Origin: a virus
Taxonomy: Duplodnaviria; Caudoviricetes
Length of the DNA stretch: 64,000 nt
IMG/VR virus record: IMGVR_UViG_3300007965_000002
Span: 25,862-89,861 of that record
Direction: 5' to 3' (one strand)
Position numbers and translations under genes: made by a program. Shown here in pieces: positions 1 through 24,465 of the stretch. How positions within the stretch are numbered: position 1 is the first letter of the stretch; every line of letters begins with the position of its first letter. The notes beneath the pieces were generated by a model. The model saw only the letters and a program-made list of their open reading frames with translations, was not told the origin of the DNA and did no database searches.

Positions 1-285
1 CAGTGTTCTGTGTTGAACCATGTAAACGACTTCTTGCTTGCCTGAAATAAACATAATTTTGAATCCTAGCTTAGTGGGTTGAAATTATTTTCTTACCCGA
101 CAAAGACAGTATAGCACACTGATAAATCATATCAACTATTTATTTGGTCTAAAATGAAAAACATTGTTCTTACCAGGAACCAACCAGGGTTACCGGCAGG
201 TAAACCTGCCCAGCCAGCCAGCCTAGGCAAATATACCTATTTCTTGCAAAAGTCGCTTAAATCGCTGTTTTGGCGGCTTCCTGTC

Positions 286-476
286 GGTGGATAATGTATA
301 AGGGCTGTTTCAATGATTTTTTTATCCACAGGTTATTAACAGGTTATACATTATCAACAGGGTTTATAGGCCACCAGCAACATTTTGACAATGGTAAGAC
401 CAATTGACCAAGTTATCCACAAAATTATTTTGTTTAATGTATAACTCACCTGTTAATAAGTCTAGACTTATCCACA
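286..476. promoter_or_regulatory. DnaA-box cluster 1
   Basis: Perfect TTATCCACA at 322-330, 413-421, 468-476; near-matches at 286-294 (rc), 333-341, 351-359, 451-459 (rc). Confidence 0.85.
371..378 (-). other. Chi octamer GCTGGTGG
   Basis: CCACCAGC on + strand. Confidence 0.5.
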
Positions 477-522
477 AGTACCACACATGCAAGAATCATG
501 CCAAAAAATTTTCGGCGCGGCG

Positions 523-587
523 AAATGAGAATGATTCTCATTTGCATTCAACCCAGTGAGCTACCAGGATGAGAATGATTATCATTT
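523..587. promoter_or_regulatory. Two Fur boxes
   Basis: AAATGAGAAT-G-ATTCTCATTT (523-543, perfect 10-1-10) and ATGAGAAT-G-ATTATCAT (569-585) match the TGATAAT-N-ATTATCA Fur consensus. Confidence 0.75.
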
Positions 588-609
588 GCATATGCAAGTT
601 TGCTAATAC

Positions 610-742
610 AAGTTGGCATGGTTTTTGTTGCGAACTATTATCATATGCGTTTTTGCTAATATACCTATATGCAAGTTTGCTAATATTAACATTAGATTCT
701 ACTAATATAAGTTGGCATGGTTTTTGTTGCGAACTATTATCA
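610..742 (+). repeat. 34-bp direct repeat AAGTTGGCATGGTTTTTGTTGCGAACTATTATCA (610-643, 709-742)
   Basis: Exact duplication; each copy holds a sigma54-like motif and a weak Fur-like site (TGCGAAC-T-ATTATCA). Confidence 0.9.
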
Positions 743-873
743 ACAAGAATCGTGCCAAGTCAAGAATCGTGCCATAACAGTAAAATCTAATATATAGCTC
801 TAGAACGCGCTATAACGTGATTTGCCGGTACTATTATTTTTTGAAGCCCTAGTATCAAAACCTTTTTAAAATG

Positions 874-881
874 CCACCAGC
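874..881 (-). other. Chi octamer GCTGGTGG
   Basis: CCACCAGC on + strand. Confidence 0.5.
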
Positions 882-895
882 AGCCAAAGCGTGAC

Positions 896-1189
896 TTATC
901 CACAAAGTTATCCACAAGCAATGGGGTTGACATTCTCAAAAGGCCATTTCTATCCACAATTTGCTAGTTATACATAAAAAATCTGTGGATAAGTGAATAA
1001 CTAGCATGTTTTACAAATGTCAAATTTATTTGAAATAATGCTTAACAAAGTTATCCCCACCTGGTAGAGCCTGGACGTGCCCCTTGTGGATAACTATTAC
1101 CAAATAGGCCGATTCCTTGGATTCTAGGAAAGTTATCCACAAAATTACAAACCAGGAAAATTATCTGTGGATAAGTGCCCTGTGGATAA
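896..1189. promoter_or_regulatory. DnaA-box cluster 2
   Basis: Perfect TTATCCACA at 896, 908, 1133; reverse TGTGGATAA at 984, 1085, 1166, 1181; near-matches at 950, 992, 1051. Confidence 0.85.
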
Positions 1190-1318
1190 GTACCAAATAG
1201 CACCAGATTCAACAATCTATTTGTTTTGATATACGACTGACCAAAAAATTAAAGTCGCTTAAATCGCTGTTTTGATGCCTTTACGGGCATATTAGTTATA
1301 TCTAATATATAACCATGT

Positions 1319-1334
1319 TGGCATGGTTATTGCT
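1319..1334 (+). promoter_or_regulatory. sigma54-type -24/-12 motif
   Basis: TGGCATGGTTATTGCT, GG-N10-GC spacing. Confidence 0.6.
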
Positions 1335-1534
1335 ACGCGCTCGCACCTGTTTCTTTTATAAACTAGCCCAGGCTTATGCATTCTAGTTATAACTTATATT
1401 AACTAGTTATTAGACGGTATTTTTTAAACGTGGTCTAATAGCTTCATTGAAACGGGACATCATTTCAATGTTATTTTTACCCTGTGATGTGAAGCGGCTT
1501 TGATTAGCGCGAGGTACTAGGAAAAAATAAAAGC

Positions 1535-1564
1535 TTGACAATAAAAACGGTTCCATGCAATAAT
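1535..1564 (+). promoter_or_regulatory. Pre-early sigma70 promoter
   Basis: A-rich UP element, TTGACA (1535-1540), TGcAATAAT -10 region, upstream of the first pre-early gene. Confidence 0.7.
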
Positions 1565-1592
1565 AGCTCCACTGATTAGGCAGCATCCTAAA

Positions 1593-1606
1593 CGTTCTTT
1601 AACAAT
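1593..1606 (+). promoter_or_regulatory. rrn-like boxA antitermination element
   Basis: CGTTCTTTAACAAT versus rrn boxA TGCTCTTTAACAAT, about 25 nt downstream of the predicted start site. Confidence 0.45.
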
Positions 1607-1715
1607 CTGGTAACAAAAAAGTTTCACTTGCCTAGTTAAAGTTATCATTAATCACATTATTTATTAGTAGTGTGATTATTGACTAACTTTTAGTCAATAC
1701 CACTAACTAAAATCA

Positions 1716-2117
1716 TTGGAGATTTTAAAAATGGCAAAGGCACCTAAAACCCAAGAAACGAAAAAAGCTACCGTATTGCGTAAAAATCACGGTACTAAGG
1801 GCAATTTTCCCCCTAAAAAATCTTGGGTAACATTAAACGGAAGGATTAAAACCGAAGTCGTTTTATGTTCTGGAAATTTCGAACCAATGCGAACGGGCGA
1901 CAAAGACAAAGACGCCGAAGCAATGCGACTTTATCGCGAAGCATACCGCGCCGATTTGCGAACGCTTGAACGCCAAAAACCTGTTAAGCCTAAAACATTA
2001 TTCGACCTTTATGTGTTGAACGGTGGCAAGGCAAGACACCCGAAACAGCTAGCAGGCCAAATTGTGCAAATGCTCGGTTATTCGCATAATTCAAGCGCTG
2101 AAATTCGCATTATTTAG
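1716..2117 (+). CDS. Pre-early hypothetical basic protein (likely start ATG 1731)
   Basis: ORF, Lys-rich, GGAG upstream of ATG 1731, first gene after the promoter. Confidence 0.7.
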   Translation: MEILKMAKAPKTQETKKATVLRKNHGTKGNFPPKKSWVTLNGRIKTEVVLCSGNFEPMRTGDKDKDAEAMRLYREAYRADLRTLERQKPVKPKTLFDLYVLNGGKARHPKQLAGQIVQMLGYSHNSSAEIRII

Positions 2118-2120
2118 GGG

Positions 2121-2327
2121 ATGCTAATGTTTATATTATTTGTTGCTATATACATGTTAGCGGCTTATTTAATTGGTTTATTAACAGGCCAATTATTGGA
2201 GTCAAGAGATAAAACTTTCTTTACCTCAGAGCCTATCCACGGCCACGTTTTATGTGTATTGTGTTTGTTCTGGCCTATCCTGCCCTTGCTTACGCAAGCC
2301 AGCAGGTTAAGGAAATTTAAACCGTAA
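2121..2327 (+). CDS. Pre-early small membrane protein
   Basis: 68 aa, two hydrophobic segments. Confidence 0.6.
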   Translation: MLMFILFVAIYMLAAYLIGLLTGQLLESRDKTFFTSEPIHGHVLCVLCLFWPILPLLTQASRLRKFKP

Positions 2328-2416
2328 TATAGAGTTATCTTAAAGAGCGTTTATTAAGCGCTCTTTGTGGCTAACTTTAGCCATTAACTAACTAACCCTT
2401 TCTAGGAGATTTACAA

Positions 2417-2884
2417 ATGACTACAACTAAAACACCAGCTAAAAAATTCGCTTGGAATGATGAAACCTGTTCACAAGCTGCCGCGCTTTATGCTGAATTA
2501 CTAGGTGCAACTTACAACCCTGTTACTAAAACGCTGGATTTTGAAGTTGGTTCGAAGCCTACTGTCGATTTACACACGGTAGCAAACAGCGAAAAAGCTT
2601 TAAATGCAATCGCTGTTAAAATTGGGGCGAAATCTGGTCGTGCTGTTCGCGGTAAGTTATCAAAAGAGGGCGTTTATATTACCCTTGAAGCCGTCCCAAC
2701 TCCAAGCACCTCGACACGTATCTCAAAAGGTCAGTACGTGCGTTCAATTGCCGAGGGTTTAGGCGTTGACCTTGAAACAATCCAAACGCTTGATAAGGCC
2801 AATTTAGAAGCGTTGGAAACCTTAACAGCGAAATTAAACGGAGTGTTGAAAGCTGCCGAAATGCCAGAAATCACTGTTAAGTAA
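2417..2884 (+). CDS. A2: T5 A2-like DNA-binding pre-early protein
   Basis: KKFAWNDE N-terminus, AVRGKLSKEGVY and KGQYVRSIA motifs resemble T5 A2; position upstream of A1. Confidence 0.85.
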   Translation: MTTTKTPAKKFAWNDETCSQAAALYAELLGATYNPVTKTLDFEVGSKPTVDLHTVANSEKALNAIAVKIGAKSGRAVRGKLSKEGVYITLEAVPTPSTSTRISKGQYVRSIAEGLGVDLETIQTLDKANLEALETLTAKLNGVLKAAEMPEITVK

Positions 2885-2945
2885 TTGTTAACTGGGCGTT
2901 AATTCTAGCGCCCTTTAATTTCCCGTAATGACGGAGTATTAAAAA

Positions 2946-3383
2946 ATGTTTTCACCCAAACTCAACTTATCTGATTTAGTCGCAGAGCATAAAGGCCATA
3001 TTGCAGCCGTATTAGATACCCAGTCCGAAATTGAGCGCTTAAAGGAACTAGCATTTCAGCAAAAAGAAGCGGCTAAACTTGACCGTGATACGTTAACGCA
3101 ATTAATACGCCAATTGTCTAACGAGCGTCACCCAAGCAACAACGGCATGTTGCAAGAAGCAAATGTTAGCGCTTTGCTTGGCGCAATCAATATTAACTTT
3201 ACTGCTTATAACAGCTCAAATGATGAAGTTAGACTAGCGTATGATAAGGCCGTTAACGTCTACAATGACGCAATGGTAAAGCTATTTAAAGCAAAAATAG
3301 CATATATCGAAAGTTGTGCTGTTTATGGTAGTATGGCAGGCTTATCGGTTAACTGGCAAGCGCTAGAAAAACGTAGCAAGTAA
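2946..3383 (+). CDS. Pre-early hypothetical coiled-coil protein
   Basis: 145-aa ORF with strong RBS (conserved CCCGTAATGACGGAG leader). Confidence 0.75.
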   Translation: MFSPKLNLSDLVAEHKGHIAAVLDTQSEIERLKELAFQQKEAAKLDRDTLTQLIRQLSNERHPSNNGMLQEANVSALLGAININFTAYNSSNDEVRLAYDKAVNVYNDAMVKLFKAKIAYIESCAVYGSMAGLSVNWQALEKRSK

Positions 3384-3423
3384 GCAACCCCTTTAAATTT
3401 TCCCGTAATGACGGAGTAACAAA

Positions 3424-5097
3424 ATGAAACAAGTTAAAAACCTATCTGTAGCGACACAAGCGGCATTGTTAAATCTTGCTCAAAATGAGTTTAATTATTA
3501 TGGCAAGCGTACCCGTTCAACTCGCCTAACTTGTGCTGAACAAATGCTTAGAGAATGTGAGTTAATCGGAACGGTAGAAAGTGCCGATTTAGTGGAATGG
3601 CTGGCAGAAAATAAACCAGCACCAGCACCAGCCAAAGAAAAAGCCGAAAAAGTTAACGCTCCGTTAGTTCCTACTTTCAACGGCGAGTTAATGCATCGTG
3701 ACGATATTATGCAAAGCTTACCTGATGGCGTTTATATTATTTCTAGTGCGCAAAATAATACATTGCCGCACCCTACACTAAAATCATTAAAAACTTTAGC
3801 GGGTGTTTTAGAGGCTCAACTTTTATTGATGCCTATTAAATACACAACAACGCTTGATAGCTTGGAACGCAAAACGCCAACTTATGACGATAGTGTTACA
3901 CCTTATCTAGTAGAGAATAATATCTGGCTAGGTGGTCGTGGCTGTGTTCGCTTGGCAGTTGGGGCAAATATCCTGCCAACCGCTAAGCAGCCAATTAACA
4001 CGGCAGCAAACTTGAATAAAGGCGAGTCGTTAACCGTTGTTGCCTCACCTAAAAAGCAACTCAAAACACTAGCCCGTTCAAAAGATGGTGCACATCGTTG
4101 GGTATATACAACGGGTTCATGTACACAACGCCATTACACTGACACCAGAGCAGGCGAGGAGGGATGTGATTCACATACGTTCGGGGCATTAGTTGTCACT
4201 GTTAATGAGGGTTATGTCGAGCATCAAGAAATTGTGGCAGATGAAAGCGGGGCATTTTATTATGATATGGCCTGTTATGATGGTTTTAACATAACAGAGA
4301 TTCACAAGACACCAGCACTAGTTTTAGGTGACTTACATTGTGAAAAGATGTGCGAAAACTCGCTTGTAAGAGCATTAGCCCAAATTGATATTTATCAGCC
4401 CTCACAAGTTATTTTACACGATACACTAGATTTTATGTCTAGAAATCATCACAATCGAAATAGCGGTTTGTTTCTATATACAATGGGTTCCCGCTCTGTT
4501 TTAGATGATTTAAATGATGCTGTTCATGTTGTAAATAGAATTGCTGCCCAATGCGATAGCGTTTTTATCGTTTGCAGTAATCACGACTTAGCCCTTGATA
4601 GCTGGCTTGATGACCCAAAATACAACGCTGATAAAGACCCTATCAACGCTAAAACGTATTATTTCTTGAAACATGCTGTTTTAGAAGCAATTGACAGCGG
4701 GGACGAACTAGACGCACCACGCTTAGCAATGTTTGATTTAGCAATCACTAAACTAGTCGAGCAGTTAGCGGAACCATTAGCCAGTAATGTTATATTTGGC
4801 CGTCTAGATATGAGCCATAAGATTAACGGATTCGAATGTGGTTCTCATGGGCATTTAGGTAACAGCGGCGCACGTGGTTCGCAACGCTCGTTTAAAGCTT
4901 ATCAGATGCCTTGGATTAGCGGCCATACACATTCACCCGCCCGTGATGGTAATGTGTTAACCGTGGGCGTTACTGGTTCGCTGGAAATGGGCTACAATAA
5001 AGGTGGTACTATGTGGGATAGAGCAAACGCCTTAATCCTGCCAAATGATACAGCCGTATTAATTCCCACGTATGCAATAGGAGAGCAGCAAGCATAA
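3424..5097 (+). CDS. A1: T5 A1-like protein (metallophosphoesterase-fold nuclease; host DNA degradation / second-step transfer)
   Basis: 557 aa; EFNYYGKR, SSAQNNT, GDLH, SNHD, GHTHS motifs; synteny. Confidence 0.92.
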   Translation: MKQVKNLSVATQAALLNLAQNEFNYYGKRTRSTRLTCAEQMLRECELIGTVESADLVEWLAENKPAPAPAKEKAEKVNAPLVPTFNGELMHRDDIMQSLPDGVYIISSAQNNTLPHPTLKSLKTLAGVLEAQLLLMPIKYTTTLDSLERKTPTYDDSVTPYLVENNIWLGGRGCVRLAVGANILPTAKQPINTAANLNKGESLTVVASPKKQLKTLARSKDGAHRWVYTTGSCTQRHYTDTRAGEEGCDSHTFGALVVTVNEGYVEHQEIVADESGAFYYDMACYDGFNITEIHKTPALVLGDLHCEKMCENSLVRALAQIDIYQPSQVILHDTLDFMSRNHHNRNSGLFLYTMGSRSVLDDLNDAVHVVNRIAAQCDSVFIVCSNHDLALDSWLDDPKYNADKDPINAKTYYFLKHAVLEAIDSGDELDAPRLAMFDLAITKLVEQLAEPLASNVIFGRLDMSHKINGFECGSHGHLGNSGARGSQRSFKAYQMPWISGHTHSPARDGNVLTVGVTGSLEMGYNKGGTMWDRANALILPNDTAVLIPTYAIGEQQA

Positions 5098-5136
5098 TGT
5101 TAGATAGAGATTATAACGGCTACCCCATTAAGTAAC

Positions 5137-5172
5137 TTAACCCGCTTTGTTCCACGTGGAACAAAGCAACCC
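5137..5172. repeat. 36-bp repeat copy 1 with parS palindrome TGTTCCACGTGGAACA (5148-5163)
   Basis: Perfect 16-bp parS inside a 24-bp palindrome (5144-5167); identical copy at 5432-5467. Confidence 0.8.
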
Positions 5173-5194
5173 CCCTTTTTACGGAGTTACCCAA

Positions 5195-5431
5195 ATGTCA
5201 CAAGTTAATATCACGTTTACCAAAGACACCCCAGAATCATTCGAACCTGAAACAGGGCAATTTTTTCAGGTTAATGAATGCCATACAAACGAATTGATTT
5301 TAATAACTGACGACACCCATGTGTGCGTTATTTTATCTAGTGGTCAATTAATGGACGTTGAAAACCTAGACGAAAAGCTTACCCGCGATAACTTAGTTAT
5401 TGATTTAAAAATCGAAGCAACCATTAAATAA
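5195..5431 (+). CDS. Pre-early hypothetical protein (78 aa; ORF track start 5147 overlaps the palindrome)
   Basis: GGAG RBS upstream of ATG 5195. Confidence 0.7.
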   Translation: MSQVNITFTKDTPESFEPETGQFFQVNECHTNELILITDDTHVCVILSSGQLMDVENLDEKLTRDNLVIDLKIEATIK

Positions 5432-5467
5432 TTAACCCGCTTTGTTCCACGTGGAACAAAGCAACCC
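5432..5467. repeat. 36-bp repeat copy 2 with parS palindrome (5443-5458)
   Basis: Exact duplicate of 5137-5172. Confidence 0.8.
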
Positions 5468-5497
5468 TTTTTCCCCGTAATGACGGAGTATTAAAAA

Positions 5498-6121
5498 ATG
5501 AGCCAATTTAAGCCAAAGCATATTACAATTTTTGACCTAGACAGAACCGTTATAGATAGCGACCATCGCACCCCCTACGATAATGATGGCAACCTAGATT
5601 TAGCAGCATATCGCGACAACCAAACACACGCTAACATTATGAATGACACACTTTTACCCTTAGCTAAACTTATGCAATCGCGCATAGCCCAAGGGGAAAC
5701 CGTGGTAATCGTTACTGCAAGGCGCATGATTAAGAGTGATTACATATACCTAAGAAAGAACGGATTAAAAACCGCGTATACTTGCAGTCGTGACCAATTA
5801 TTCAAGCGCTTCGATAATGAAACCGCATCAATGATTTATAATCTTAATGATGCAAACTACAAATGGCATTGGTTTAACCATTTACAGAACCGTTTTCCTC
5901 TTGCCTCGTTTACTGTATACGATGACCATAAAGGCGTATTAAAGGTGGCGCAATCGTTTGGCTTTCAAGTGTACGATGCAATTAGTGTTAATAGTATGCT
6001 GGCTGATTTTCTTGATATGGGATTTGAAGAAGGATTTGCGCAAGGATTAGACGCGGGTTATCTGGACGGGGAAATGAGCGCTATTCATCAGGTAATTGAA
6101 TTTGACAGCAGAGCAGCCTAA
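5498..6121 (+). CDS. dmp: Deoxynucleoside-5'-monophosphatase (HAD family)
   Basis: IFDLDRTVIDSDHR motif I, VTAR motif II, YDDH motif IV; last pre-early gene as in T5. Confidence 0.9.
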   Translation: MSQFKPKHITIFDLDRTVIDSDHRTPYDNDGNLDLAAYRDNQTHANIMNDTLLPLAKLMQSRIAQGETVVIVTARRMIKSDYIYLRKNGLKTAYTCSRDQLFKRFDNETASMIYNLNDANYKWHWFNHLQNRFPLASFTVYDDHKGVLKVAQSFGFQVYDAISVNSMLADFLDMGFEEGFAQGLDAGYLDGEMSAIHQVIEFDSRAA

Positions 6122-6201
6122 GCGCAATGCTGGTAGTATATGCATCAATGCTAATATAGTGCAATATGTTAGCATTGCATTATCCCCCTGTTAGAGCATT
6201 A

Positions 6202-6232
6202 GCCCTTACTAATATATAGTAAGGGCATTTTT
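6202..6232 (+). terminator. Rho-independent terminator after dmp
   Basis: GCCCTTACTA-atata-TAGTAAGGGC followed by ATTTTT. Confidence 0.8.
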
Positions 6233-6241
6233 ATTATGTAC

Positions 6242-6348
6242 AAATGATAATCAATATCAAATGAGAATCATTCGCATATGATAAGCCAGGAACAAATGAT
6301 AATCATTCGCATTTAGGGTGGGGGCGGTAATGAGACTCATTCTCATTT
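6242..6348. promoter_or_regulatory. Four Fur-box-like sites at the presumed terminal-repeat boundary
   Basis: 6242-6262, 6259-6279, 6294-6314, 6328-6348, all TGA(T/G)A(A/C)T-C-A(T/A)T(A/C)(T/G)CA. Confidence 0.7.
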
Positions 6349-6443
6349 GACCCAGGCCCCACCCCTTTTCATGTAACTACTATGAAAAATTAGAGGAAAT
6401 GGCTTAGGCCGCCTCTAAGAGCAACTAAGCGGTTCCCTGAAAG

Positions 6444-6597
6444 CAACTATGCATAATTCCCCAACTATGCATAATTCCCATAACTATACATAATTCCCAT
6501 AACTATGCATAATTCCCCTAACTCCCTATACTCCCTTTACTTCCCAACTTCCTATACTCCCTTTACTTCCTATACTCCCCGCACCCCTCCACTCCCA
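6444..6597 (+). repeat. Tandem 18-19 bp repeats (x4, YAACTATRCATAATTCCC) followed by a C/T-rich tract
   Basis: Units at 6444, 6462, 6481, 6500; CCTATACTCCC repeats 6524-6580. Confidence 0.85.
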
Positions 6598-6698
6598 AAG
6601 AGACTACTAATCTAAAAGACTCCAAATACAATTCTTAATTTTTTAATTTAAAAATACTTGGCTAGTACCTTACTTGCATCCGAGGTAGAAAATTAATC

Positions 6699-8856: not shown

Positions 8857-9707
8857 TGAGTATACTAATTAGAGGTGGTGGTGTAGTACCTCCTCTTACT
8901 AACTTAGCACTTACTAGACTTAGTACCTATATTGCTCAACTACTAAGCTCAGGTCAATTATCCTTTACTTCTCAACCACAAAGTAAAGCAGTTGACCAGT
9001 ATTCCCTAGCTACCTTTAGTTGTGTTATTTTAGGGGGGGTAGGACCATATACTTATCAGTGGAAGAAGAATGGTATTAACGTAGGTACTAATAGTGATTC
9101 ACTATCTTTTGTAGCTGCTACTACGGATAAAAATGCATCGATTACGGTTACTGTGACTGATAGTGTTGGCACTATAATTACTTCTAGTGCCGCAATTTTA
9201 GGTGTGACGAGTTATGTATACCAATTAGACGGTGTGGCTCAATACCACAAGTTGAGCAACCAAATACCTTTTGATGCCAATACAGTAATAAAGATTAAAT
9301 TTTTAGGTGTGCCGTCTTTTTTTGGGGCGTATCGAAAGTTTATAGAGTCAGCAGATTATGCAACGAGAGTTGACTCTAATGCTTCTGGAAACACATTTAG
9401 ACTTAATAGCTGTACCGCTAAACTTGATGGTATAGCTATATCAACAGGAACAGCAATACCGACTTCAGGGTGGCATACATTAGAAATAACTCCAACATCT
9501 ACCAGCTCATTGGCTACAATAGGAAGTCGTGGATCTGGAGAATTATCAATATGGGGATTATTTGGATTTGAAGTAATTAAATCAGGAGTTATATCTAATA
9601 ATATACCATTAAATAATAAATCTGCTGGTGCTAACCAGCTTGCTACTGCTGGAAGCATCAACGCTACGATAGTTAATTATAATCCAGCGGGGTGGGTAGC
9701 ATTATGA
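8856..9707 (+). CDS. Ig-like plus lectin/LamG-like domain protein, probable virion surface protein
   Basis: GGVGPYTYQWKKNG...VTVTDS Ig signature; C-terminal beta-sandwich with GWHTLEI. Confidence 0.7.
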   Translation: MSILIRGGGVVPPLTNLALTRLSTYIAQLLSSGQLSFTSQPQSKAVDQYSLATFSCVILGGVGPYTYQWKKNGINVGTNSDSLSFVAATTDKNASITVTVTDSVGTIITSSAAILGVTSYVYQLDGVAQYHKLSNQIPFDANTVIKIKFLGVPSFFGAYRKFIESADYATRVDSNASGNTFRLNSCTAKLDGIAISTGTAIPTSGWHTLEITPTSTSSLATIGSRGSGELSIWGLFGFEVIKSGVISNNIPLNNKSAGANQLATAGSINATIVNYNPAGWVAL

Positions 9708-9985
9708 TACAATTAGATACTTGGGTTAATTCTGGTATGTATATATTTGTTATATTATCTGAGGAGGGTTATCAGGCTAATGAGATAGCTAAGACAACTT
9801 GGCCTAGTGCAGCTATATATGGCGACTATCGATTAGTTAATTTTCATAAAGATAACGTAGAGGAGTTTATAGCACAATTAGACTCCCTAGGTTATACTCC
9901 TACGTATGGTTTAGGAGGAAATACTCCTATGCTAGTTACTTGGGAAGAGGCTAAAGAATTTACTGCACAATATAATATTGAGTGA
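9692..9985 (+). CDS. Hypothetical protein
   Basis: 97-aa ORF coupled to the upstream gene. Confidence 0.6.
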   Translation: MGSIMIQLDTWVNSGMYIFVILSEEGYQANEIAKTTWPSAAIYGDYRLVNFHKDNVEEFIAQLDSLGYTPTYGLGGNTPMLVTWEEAKEFTAQYNIE

Positions 9986-23200: not shown

Positions 23201-23703
23201 CATTTGCTCAGTTAGGTCCATGGGGCGCAGTACCTGCTGCTATGATTGCAGCTATGGGTGCTATGCAGCTATCTTCACTTGATTCTGGAACCGTTGCTGA
23301 CCCTTCAGGGGCTGGTAATATAGGTAAACTAGAGTTAGGTAGTAGAGATAACGTTGTTAACCTAGATAAAGGAGCTACAAGTGGAGAACTAAACTATGTT
23401 CGCGGTAATAGCGGTGTTGGTGGAATTCAAGACTTTGTACCTAGAGCACGTGGTAATAACATGAGTCCTAACGTTTCTTATGCTACTGGTGAACATGGCA
23501 TAGAGGTTGTATCTTCTGATAGTTCTAGAACTAGTGTTACTTCTGCTGAGAATGTAGATGGAACTTCTTCAGGAAGAAAAGGTATAGGTATGGCACTTAC
23601 TATTAATGCACTTGACTCTCAGTCTGTTATAGATAGAGCTGCTGAAATCTTTGCTGCTGTAGAGGCAGAAGCAAACTCTAGGGGTTATACTTTAGAGAGA
23701 TAA
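20236..23703 (+). CDS. pb2: Tape measure protein (pb2-like)
   Basis: 1155 aa helical Ala/Gln-rich, C-terminal hydrophobic segment; synteny. Confidence 0.92.
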   Translation: MANKLIEELIINVKQKGLTTVTNNVKKLQDNMVNAAAGAELLDSSLKPIPESLKQILAEAKQVDQIIGNLGMGAGTDRLEAVLQEIEDSMLELVGSSVKMNETLEQGFKSMSSNSANEIHDLIVQLERLEDTTENVGRRNTLQTQLNEKLAASQERVNRGLGRTNAQGRGQARNFANIARVAGPLPGLYAVIAANVFTLSEAFRVMTEGDQLNRLEKVGTILGAQVGVPIQSIARDMEEATGYTISYEQALRQATSAATYGFGAEQITDMTIAARRASVALGVDMTDALNRIIRGVSKLEIELLDELGITVRLTEAYDTYARSIGKTADSLSGYQKQQAYLNAVLKESEARQSAVDPLTQATGWERLGASLSGATTRGKQWISGFLEPAAAAAANIFSEDNLTKGQKVIEANLETLKKSIEAGDKGSVYSMLTGDAKAQAQYKKLNADMLNLQYQAELMRDTLAATPDNLGKNLIYRQISGIESAIDAVTAKMRVYNEALESGKTYLNKHSDAQIEAGNEAYKEAASIAKSAEEYTKITSAVKGVAKPYEVLQNNLTSVSEGLANFIAIGGTAEEFYKEIKISKETIDGYTNLQAAMEKVAVATATLGASQAAITWSDAQKGVATETTALKLQQQSINLLTKEIALAKQASATKSEGSILELEAQRNTLISERGFLLQAEARALLDASQSTRELSLLQATYIDQVANASSEYVRQKAITTQQLIFQQEQLDLAVAQNKPLAERAALEMQILQTKQKSTDLDKAELTNKFGKETDALNQGNSTGNAGPISDLTKQVQLAEQQTAIAQAKGAEFHDQYLERLSNELALKVQLQQMELSREATLQNLFMSRIGMQSTIAMNMEEELAYQNQIGASIYESSRAVLDGFDPAMGSMFDGLEKFTYALKNMGNTSEGVWNGVSSGIQAAAGVMSFMSDQAIQDIDKQIEAEKKKDGKSAESKKKIAQLEAKRKNEEMKAKRISIVSSTAAGIMQSFAQLGPWGAVPAAMIAAMGAMQLSSLDSGTVADPSGAGNIGKLELGSRDNVVNLDKGATSGELNYVRGNSGVGGIQDFVPRARGNNMSPNVSYATGEHGIEVVSSDSSRTSVTSAENVDGTSSGRKGIGMALTINALDSQSVIDRAAEIFAAVEAEANSRGYTLER

Positions 23704-23838: not shown

Positions 23839-24465
23839 ATGACAACTTTACGATTACCAGATCCACTTACTAACCCTAATGCACCTGGGTTCACAGATGT
23901 ACGTCTGATTGATAATTACCCAATCTATAGGGATAGACTAGCCGGAGGTAGCGTAGTTACTTTAGCTAGCGGTGCACAATATTGGAGTATATCCCTAACT
24001 TACTCTGAGTTATTCCCTGAAGAGCAATACATTTTAAGTACTTCCTTACTAAACTGCAAACATAAGGGTCAACCTTTAATGGTTTTACTACCACAGTATG
24101 AGAATTTCCATACAATAGGAGATCCTAGTAGTATCACAATTGCAGCAGGACAACAAGGTAATAACCTTACTATGCAGAATTACAATCTAACTGGGGCACC
24201 AAAAGCTGGTGACCTATTTCAGTTAACTAACCATAGTAGCAAGGTATATAAGATAACTAATGTAGTATTAGTAGGTACTATACTAACACTAGAAGTTTAT
24301 CCTAATTTACGAGTACCTACTACAGGTAATGAAAAGCCTGTATTTAATGGTATACTATTTCAAACAGTACTAGCTAAACCAGAAGCAGTAGAATCTACCT
24401 TTACTTCAGATAGACATTACTCTGGGTTTACTCTAGAACTAGAGGAGCATGTAACAAATGGCTAA
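23839..24465 (+). CDS. pb9: Distal tail protein (pb9)
   Basis: LRLPDPLTNPNAPGF, QYWSISLTY, GDLFQ. Confidence 0.88.
   Translation: MTTLRLPDPLTNPNAPGFTDVRLIDNYPIYRDRLAGGSVVTLASGAQYWSISLTYSELFPEEQYILSTSLLNCKHKGQPLMVLLPQYENFHTIGDPSSITIAAGQQGNNLTMQNYNLTGAPKAGDLFQLTNHSSKVYKITNVVLVGTILTLEVYPNLRVPTTGNEKPVFNGILFQTVLAKPEAVESTFTSDRHYSGFTLELEEHVTNG

Follow-up and report, generated by a model that had tools for sequence, protein, structure and literature searches.

Arrays of predicted host-protein binding sites in the pre-early terminal-repeat region of a T5-like marine phage

In the virus record IMGVR_UViG_3300007965_000002 (IMG/VR), the gene-free blocks that accompany the pre-early genes A2, A1 and dmp of a T5-like phage are, as read from their motifs, arrays of selected, predicted binding sites for proteins that are already in the host cell. 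The window analyzed here comprises the 64,000 nucleotides at bases 25862-89861 of this 89.9-kb linear record, which is ~77% complete. The segment at its start is, by homology, most of the pre-early terminal-repeat region of a marine phage of the Demerecviridae. The predicted sites resemble those of DnaA, Fur, LexA, sigma-54 and ParB (parS). Shuffling tests and comparison with relatives show that they are real, confined to the block and maintained by selection, and that they keep exactly the positions read by host proteins. The explanation that we favor, and regard as moderately probable, is a host-protein complex that would hold, organize or shield the first-injected DNA, which extends the DnaA model of Davison.

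The stop of T5 DNA after 8% of it has entered, and the protection of this part during destruction of the host chromosome, have been open problems since the 1960s. DnaA boxes in this region have already been published (Davison preprint), and DnaA is the only host candidate named in the literature for T5 (possibly with IHF/FIS); the stop-region features listed in a 2026 paper are repeats, palindromes and DnaA boxes only. A preliminary description of this DNA, made from its sequence, knew of no account of parS, Fur-type and sigma-54 sites together, and we likewise found no paper linking Fur, LexA, sigma-54 or parS with T5-type first-step DNA. The conserved parS and sigma-54 sites seem not to have been described before; this work adds evidence for parS across the clade, the footprint of the sigma-54 box, a reciprocal test of the Fur-type word in bacterial genomes and the placing of the blocks on the T5 map. 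The sites supply concrete host candidates for the T5-type injection pause and, if they bind what they resemble, T5 and the available fur, lexA and dnaA strains of E. coli K-12 make the question testable. A conserved chromosomal parS in a virulent phage without parAB would be a new phage use of the host segregation machinery.

Motif arrays in the gene-free blocks

All motif counts of the preliminary description were correct on recount (10 DnaA boxes, six Fur-type boxes plus two weaker ones, six sigma-54 motifs, two Chi octamers, one boxA and two parS sites). The enrichment over a shuffled background that it called for was found, with shuffle means of 0.62 for DnaA boxes (maximum 4), 0.35 for Fur-type boxes and 0.68 for sigma-54 motifs. 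Confinement to the pre-early block holds for DnaA boxes, Fur-type boxes and parS, and is partial for the other two classes: six of the eight window matches to the relaxed sigma-54 pattern TGGCAY-N5-TTG (at 490-1332) and two of the three Chi octamers lie there. The motif features of the window are as follows, with the strand where one was assigned.

249-279: direct repeat copy 1 (24 nucleotides exact, 31 nucleotides at 90%)
322-476, plus strand: three perfect DnaA boxes (322, 413, 468)
371-378, minus strand: Chi octamer, facing the injection-stop-side end
488-503, minus strand: full sigma-54 -24/-12 box, a word that recurs in the upstream block and in relatives
524-542 and 568-586: two Fur-type 19-bp palindromes
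613-740, plus strand: two copies of a 41-nucleotide repeat, whose degenerate sigma-54 boxes (613 and 712) are as good a fit to a sigma-70 promoter (TTGGCA, 17 nucleotides, TATTAT)
744-774, minus strand: two degenerate sigma-54 boxes, in which the -12 element reads TTGA
874-881, minus strand: Chi octamer
896-1189: seven perfect DnaA boxes, with the pair 896/908 3 bp apart
1251-1281: direct repeat copy 2, aligning with a conserved element ~65 nucleotides upstream of the sigma-54 box in relatives
1319-1334, plus strand: full sigma-54 -24/-12 box, pointing at the pre-early operon
5148-5163: perfect chromosomal-type parS, after A1
5443-5458: perfect chromosomal-type parS, after a small open reading frame (ORF, 5195-5431)
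6243-6347: four Fur-type boxes at spacings of 17, 35 and 34 bp

The perfect DnaA boxes (TTATCCACA) all fall at 322-1189, and the other 62.8 kb of the window contains none; the 3-bp spacing of paired boxes has been described for T5 (Davison preprint). The six Fur-type 19-mers (≤3 mismatches) start at 524, 568, 6243, 6260, 6295 and 6329, with none elsewhere in the window, and the two weaker motifs, at 629 and 728, each have 3 mismatches to the 7-1-7 core. Counted over the repeat, 10 Fur-type sites have ≤3 mismatches to the family profile and 1-3 to the core. All six reported sigma-54 motifs are present, two of them full, but the other four are degenerate and lack the -12 GC; the full -12 element TTGC occurs within the window only in the boxes at 488 and 1319. 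Both parS 16-mers (consensus TGTTNCACGTGNAACA) sit in a perfect 36-bp repeat, and the 89.9-kb record has no other. As controls, motifs for CRP, FNR, IHF, ArgR, TyrR and CpxR, together with matS and GATC, show no enrichment in the blocks, whose G+C is 0.381 against 0.366 for the genome.

The motif island continues upstream of the window (locus L001, record 22.5-25.9 kb), where four more DnaA boxes, four more Fur-type boxes and two further full sigma-54 boxes are joined by a single LexA-type palindrome, by repeats like direct repeat D of T5 and by an array resembling met boxes with a period of 8 bp. The LexA-type palindrome (CTGT-N8-ACAG, AT-rich, record 23844-23863) is the only such word in the 89.9-kb record. 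The periodic array (record 23519-23600) consists of ten tandem 8-bp units near the MetJ met-box word, in exact register, and a second pair is found at L001:7125-7140; similar arrays occur near the start of the terminal repeats of the Vibrio phages Chloris and Chester, and none in the closer relatives L024 and L025.

Conservation and position on the T5 map

The same motif scan was run on T5, Klebsiella phage Kpn13-P2, Proteus phage PL1, Chloris, Chester and D17. These six phages and the one studied here have a common order of GTGCRAAWCCGA-type (direct-repeat-D) units, Fur-type boxes and a LexA-type palindrome with DnaA boxes; the compared phages have a second LexA/DnaA group in the central block and a boxA-like word downstream of the pre-early promoters. 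None of these elements was found by the same scan in Shewanella phage 1/4, which lies outside the Demerecviridae and has an A1-like gene in another context. A LexA-type palindrome adjoins DnaA boxes in every Demerecviridae repeat examined; the T5 copies are at 9409-9428 and 6211-6230, the former a near-consensus palindrome in the stop region, where Fur-type boxes lie at 9552-9715. The predicted DnaA boxes and LexA-type and Fur-type palindromes occupy corresponding locations in the T5, Klebsiella, Proteus and Vibrio phages and are ancestral to the family; the putative sigma-54 boxes were added in marine lineages and the chromosomal-type parS in this phage's own clade.

With T5 this phage shares the gene order (A2, A1, dmp), a divergent small-gene operon, paired DnaA boxes 3 bp apart, direct-repeat-D-type units, a LexA-type palindrome adjoining DnaA boxes and the orientation of Chi. 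Nor are the Fur-type boxes special to this phage; they are the direct-repeat-C and palindrome elements of T5. It differs from T5 in the sigma-54 boxes, which its marine kin share, in the parS of its own clade, in the number of perfect DnaA boxes (14 here, 3 in T5) and in the 8-bp met-box-like array. The expectation that the sites would be conserved in relatives was confirmed for the DnaA, Fur-type, full sigma-54 and parS sites, which are kept while the flanking DNA diverges.

Five related contigs, with A1 70-76% identical, contain 16 parS instances, one to five per closer relative, located after A1, after the next small ORF or between small genes of the divergent operon. All 14 of the 14 consensus positions are invariant across these instances; variation is limited to the two free positions, where it is uncompensated, and no relationship or palindrome is seen in the flanks (chance expectation 0.0002). 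Because the specified positions are fixed, the free positions uncompensated and the flanks unrelated, the pattern indicates selection on a predicted protein-binding DNA word rather than on an RNA hairpin. We rejected a mere RNA hairpin or terminator, given that the closer relatives keep the 16-mer without a palindromic flank and vary it at the free positions only. In this phage parS lies within a 24-bp palindrome, at a place where relatives carry unrelated hairpins.

As in chromosomal and plasmid-prophage parS of the Bacillus/Vibrio chromosome I type, the phage has a perfect 16-bp consensus in several copies that are conserved in the clade. P1 and N15 have their own parS/ParB systems. In contrast to known parS/ParB centromeres, the carrier is a virulent T5-like phage rather than a plasmid-prophage, the sites lie between pre-early genes of the first-injected DNA, and the 89.9-kb record contains no parA or parB; a ParB, Fur or sigma-54-activator (PF00158) gene was likewise not found in it. 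No parS was found in the Thalassavirus, D17, T5, Klebsiella or Proteus phages scanned, and an identical 20-nucleotide parS palindrome occurs in eight other viral contigs that are not T5-like.

Upstream of the pre-early operon, nothing is better conserved in marine lineages than the sigma-54 box at 1319. An alignment of five phages upstream of the pre-early operon has a single long invariant island, consisting of this box and its immediate flanks, and D17 has changed the spacer of the box and kept its -24 and -12 elements. The direct repeat at 1251-1281 may be an enhancer site for a sigma-54 activator, for which its position is plausible, and an activator supplied by the host is possible. Rfam returned two sub-threshold chance hits only, with no known RNA and no Qrr-type small RNA behind the sigma-54 box.

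For the Fur-type boxes, 38 sites from across the phages give a symmetric 19-bp profile, and their arrays are often spaced by 35 bp in T5, the Klebsiella phage, L024/L025 and this phage. A search of 185,579 bacterial genomes for the exact consensus word of the phage boxes returned at least 120 stretches. Among the matches listed, 80 sites were examined and 77 of these are intergenic, and among the flanking ORFs are matches to FUR, FeoA, FTR1, binding proteins of the ZnuA and iron types, plug domains of TonB receptors and extracytoplasmic function (ECF) sigma factors. Because the word is intergenic and next to fur and iron genes, we take it to be a Fur-family operator in bacteria. The phage boxes resemble bacterial Fur operators and clusters (Chen et al. 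2007, PMC2189734) in the core of the 19-bp palindrome, in clustering and in the exact word found beside iron genes. They differ in spacing (~35 bp, against 3 or 6 bp between overlapping bacterial sites), in preferring G/C four bases from the center and in promoter overlap, a feature of 83% of the Fur clusters in E. coli (Chen et al. 2007, PMC2189734): the phage boxes are 60-125 bp upstream of, or far from, strong promoters and overlap none.

The assignment to the first-injected DNA follows from gene content and from the maps of T5 and Chloris. The genes for an A2-like DNA-binding protein, for A1 (557 amino acids) and for the deoxynucleoside monophosphate (dNMP) phosphatase dmp form one block of ORFs at 1716-6121, and the Pfam families Phage_T5_A2 and T5 dNMPase were matched in close relatives. 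Genes for the small and large terminase subunits follow downstream of dmp, from 6764. A1 is 49% identical to that of the Vibrio phages Brizo and Chloris (Thalassavirus, Demerecviridae) and ~34% identical to T5-group A1 (tblastn), and the order of pre-early genes followed by terminase is common to this phage and the Vibrio phages Brizo, Chloris and Chester. A megablast of the segment against phage records gave no match and an A1 search of viral contigs found no relatives; the relatives came from tblastn and from a protein search with contig look-ups, which supplied the closer ones. The record, a linear fragment, has one copy of the pre-early block, and Chloris has a 7,590-bp terminal repeat with the same content.

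The T5 record annotates its left terminal repeat as first-step-transfer DNA. From the physical end, its order is dmp, A1, A2, the divergent promoter block, the small-gene operon and, at the far side, the injection stop signal, and the window presents the same map in the opposite orientation. The Chloris repeat ends 93 bp past dmp; aligned here, this end falls at ~6363, where we place the physical genome end by homology. By analogy with T5, the segment probably reaches from the central non-coding block as far as the end entering first, and the earlier identification of it as first-injected DNA is supported by homology with both T5 and Chloris.

The preliminary description referred to the T5 stop region; block 249-1250 instead matches T5 repeat regions 1/2, the central divergent-promoter block, and we rejected it as the injection stop signal itself. 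The counterpart of the stop precedes the window by ~2 kb (record bases 22.5-24.1 kb) and is colinear with the T5 injection-stop region. On the T5 map both Chi octamers face the last-injected, injection-stop-side end, in an orientation that is identical in all relatives scanned and fits RecBCD entry from that end only. Because of this they cannot protect the leading end.

Possible roles of the arrays

The T5 injection pause needs no phage protein synthesis, the arrays far exceed operators in size and they avoid promoters, and because of these three points we favor a complex built by the host. Judging from the quality of the sites, host proteins would bind to the DNA as it enters, at a time when no phage protein has yet been made, and would build on it a nucleoprotein complex that holds, organizes or shields the first-injected DNA during the pause. 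A1 and A2 may later release or bypass this complex. Separately, a strong sigma-70 promoter with a boxA leader would drive the pre-early genes by means of host Nus factors.

Several points weigh against this explanation. Binding at the sites is predicted from the motifs, two-step injection in this phage rests on the analogy with T5, and it is physically unclear how proteins on DNA already inside would stop DNA that is still entering. Thalassavirus phages have no parS and few Fur-type boxes, yet presumably inject in two steps. The Fur-type profile favors G/C four bases from the center, where the Fur consensus has T/A. Six phages share without change a 28-bp block at 6321-6348, which is made of a G-rich flank and a Fur-type palindrome with a degenerate center and is ~20 bp away from the Chloris genome end; that this end-proximal box is kept together with a non-Fur flank suggests a phage function, for example terminus cutting, which the block may serve besides, or in place of, Fur binding. 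Finally, a phage ParB or activator gene could lie in the missing ~23% of the record.

A stronger form of the host-built complex would make the segment a purpose-built docking platform of T5-type phages. DnaA, Fur and LexA would load on it within seconds, joined in marine hosts by sigma-54 holoenzyme and ParB-CTP clamps. The resulting complex would itself serve as injection stop, anchor or shield until dismantled by A1/A2, and the state of the host could thus gate the second step. We consider this version doubtful.

The sites could instead be regulatory sensors, that is, ordinary operators and promoters that tie pre-early or early transcription, or the decision to continue injection, to the state of the host (iron through Fur, damage through LexA, an activator through sigma-54). 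The conserved sigma-54 box at 1319 aimed at the pre-early operon, with a conserved element ~65 nucleotides upstream where an activator site is expected, fits this, as do the location of the central block between divergent promoters and the fact that each host protein reports a physiological state. We nevertheless hold it unlikely, given the distance of the Fur-type boxes from strong promoters compared with E. coli Fur clusters (PMC2189734), the several sigma-54 boxes that aim into gene-free DNA or antisense to genes, the size of the arrays relative to what operators require and the lack of an activator gene in the record. Simple iron-dependent repression by Fur is, for the same want of promoter overlap, unsupported.

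Another alternative is that phage proteins (A2, A1, the small terminase or a virion protein) read the repeats for injection restart, end cutting or packaging, and that the likeness to host sites is coincidence or mimicry. A2 is a DNA-binding protein needed for the second step, Davison proposed A1/A2 cleavage at these palindromes, and both the invariant end-proximal box with its non-Fur flank and the departure of the profile from the Fur consensus at one symmetric position point the same way. Against this, five motif classes match five different host consensuses at or near perfection, the motifs are unchanged in phages that share only 34% identity in A1, iron genes of bacteria are marked by this Fur-type word, and parS keeps exactly the positions specified by ParB. 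Together with the independence of the T5 pause from phage protein synthesis, this makes phage readers rather improbable.

Less probable still is a sponge, in which hundreds of replicated copies would soak up DnaA, Fur, ParB, LexA and sigma-54 and thereby switch host regulons or block host replication and segregation. Many high-affinity-type sites per repeat and two repeats per genome would suit such a decoy, and DnaA titration has a precedent in the datA locus of E. coli. T5-type phages, though, destroy host DNA within minutes and would gain little from altered regulons or segregation, one infecting genome has too few sites to titrate abundant Fur, and placement specifically in the first-injected repeat is left unexplained.

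Chance matches in an AT-rich, repeat-rich region are hardly credible: the region is full of other repeats without a known match, and four sigma-54 and two Fur motifs are weak, but the shuffle tests, the absence from the other ~80 kb of the record, the unenriched controls, a G+C near that of the genome and the conservation across phages refute a chance origin for the DnaA boxes, Fur-type boxes, parS and the two full sigma-54 boxes.

Further features of the segment

The remaining features are those of the pre-early operon and its ends.

1535-1564, plus strand: strong sigma-70 promoter of the pre-early operon (11/12 matches, with TG)
1594-1602, plus strand: boxA-like word ~30 nucleotides after the sigma-70 promoter
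1716-6121, plus strand: pre-early operon (A2-like DNA-binding protein 2417-2884, A1 3424-5097, dmp 5498-6121)
6202-6226, plus strand: intrinsic terminator after dmp
6358-6368: predicted physical end of the genome, which would enter first, by homology with the end of the Chloris terminal repeat

The boxA-like word had been counted among the DNA landing sites; boxA is instead an antitermination signal that acts on RNA. The word probably recruits Nus factors that carry transcription through intergenic hairpins. Its distance from the operon promoter, shared with relatives, is like that of rrn/lambda-type boxA, from which it differs by one mismatch in this phage; the word in D17 has a longer match to the rrn boxA.

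The same leader of ~25 nucleotides, with a small stem right before the Shine-Dalgarno sequence, stands ahead of three pre-early genes (2919-2948, 3399-3428 and 5471-5500) and may be an RNA processing or translation signal. T5 origins map mid-genome (Davison). GATC occurs 82 times in the whole 89.9-kb record against ~350 expected for a 4-mer, a shortage suggesting that a host enzyme specific for GATC is avoided. Window positions 6445-6600, which separate the predicted repeat end from the gene for the small terminase, contain tandem 18-19-bp repeats followed by C-rich 9-bp repeats; these may be a packaging signal.

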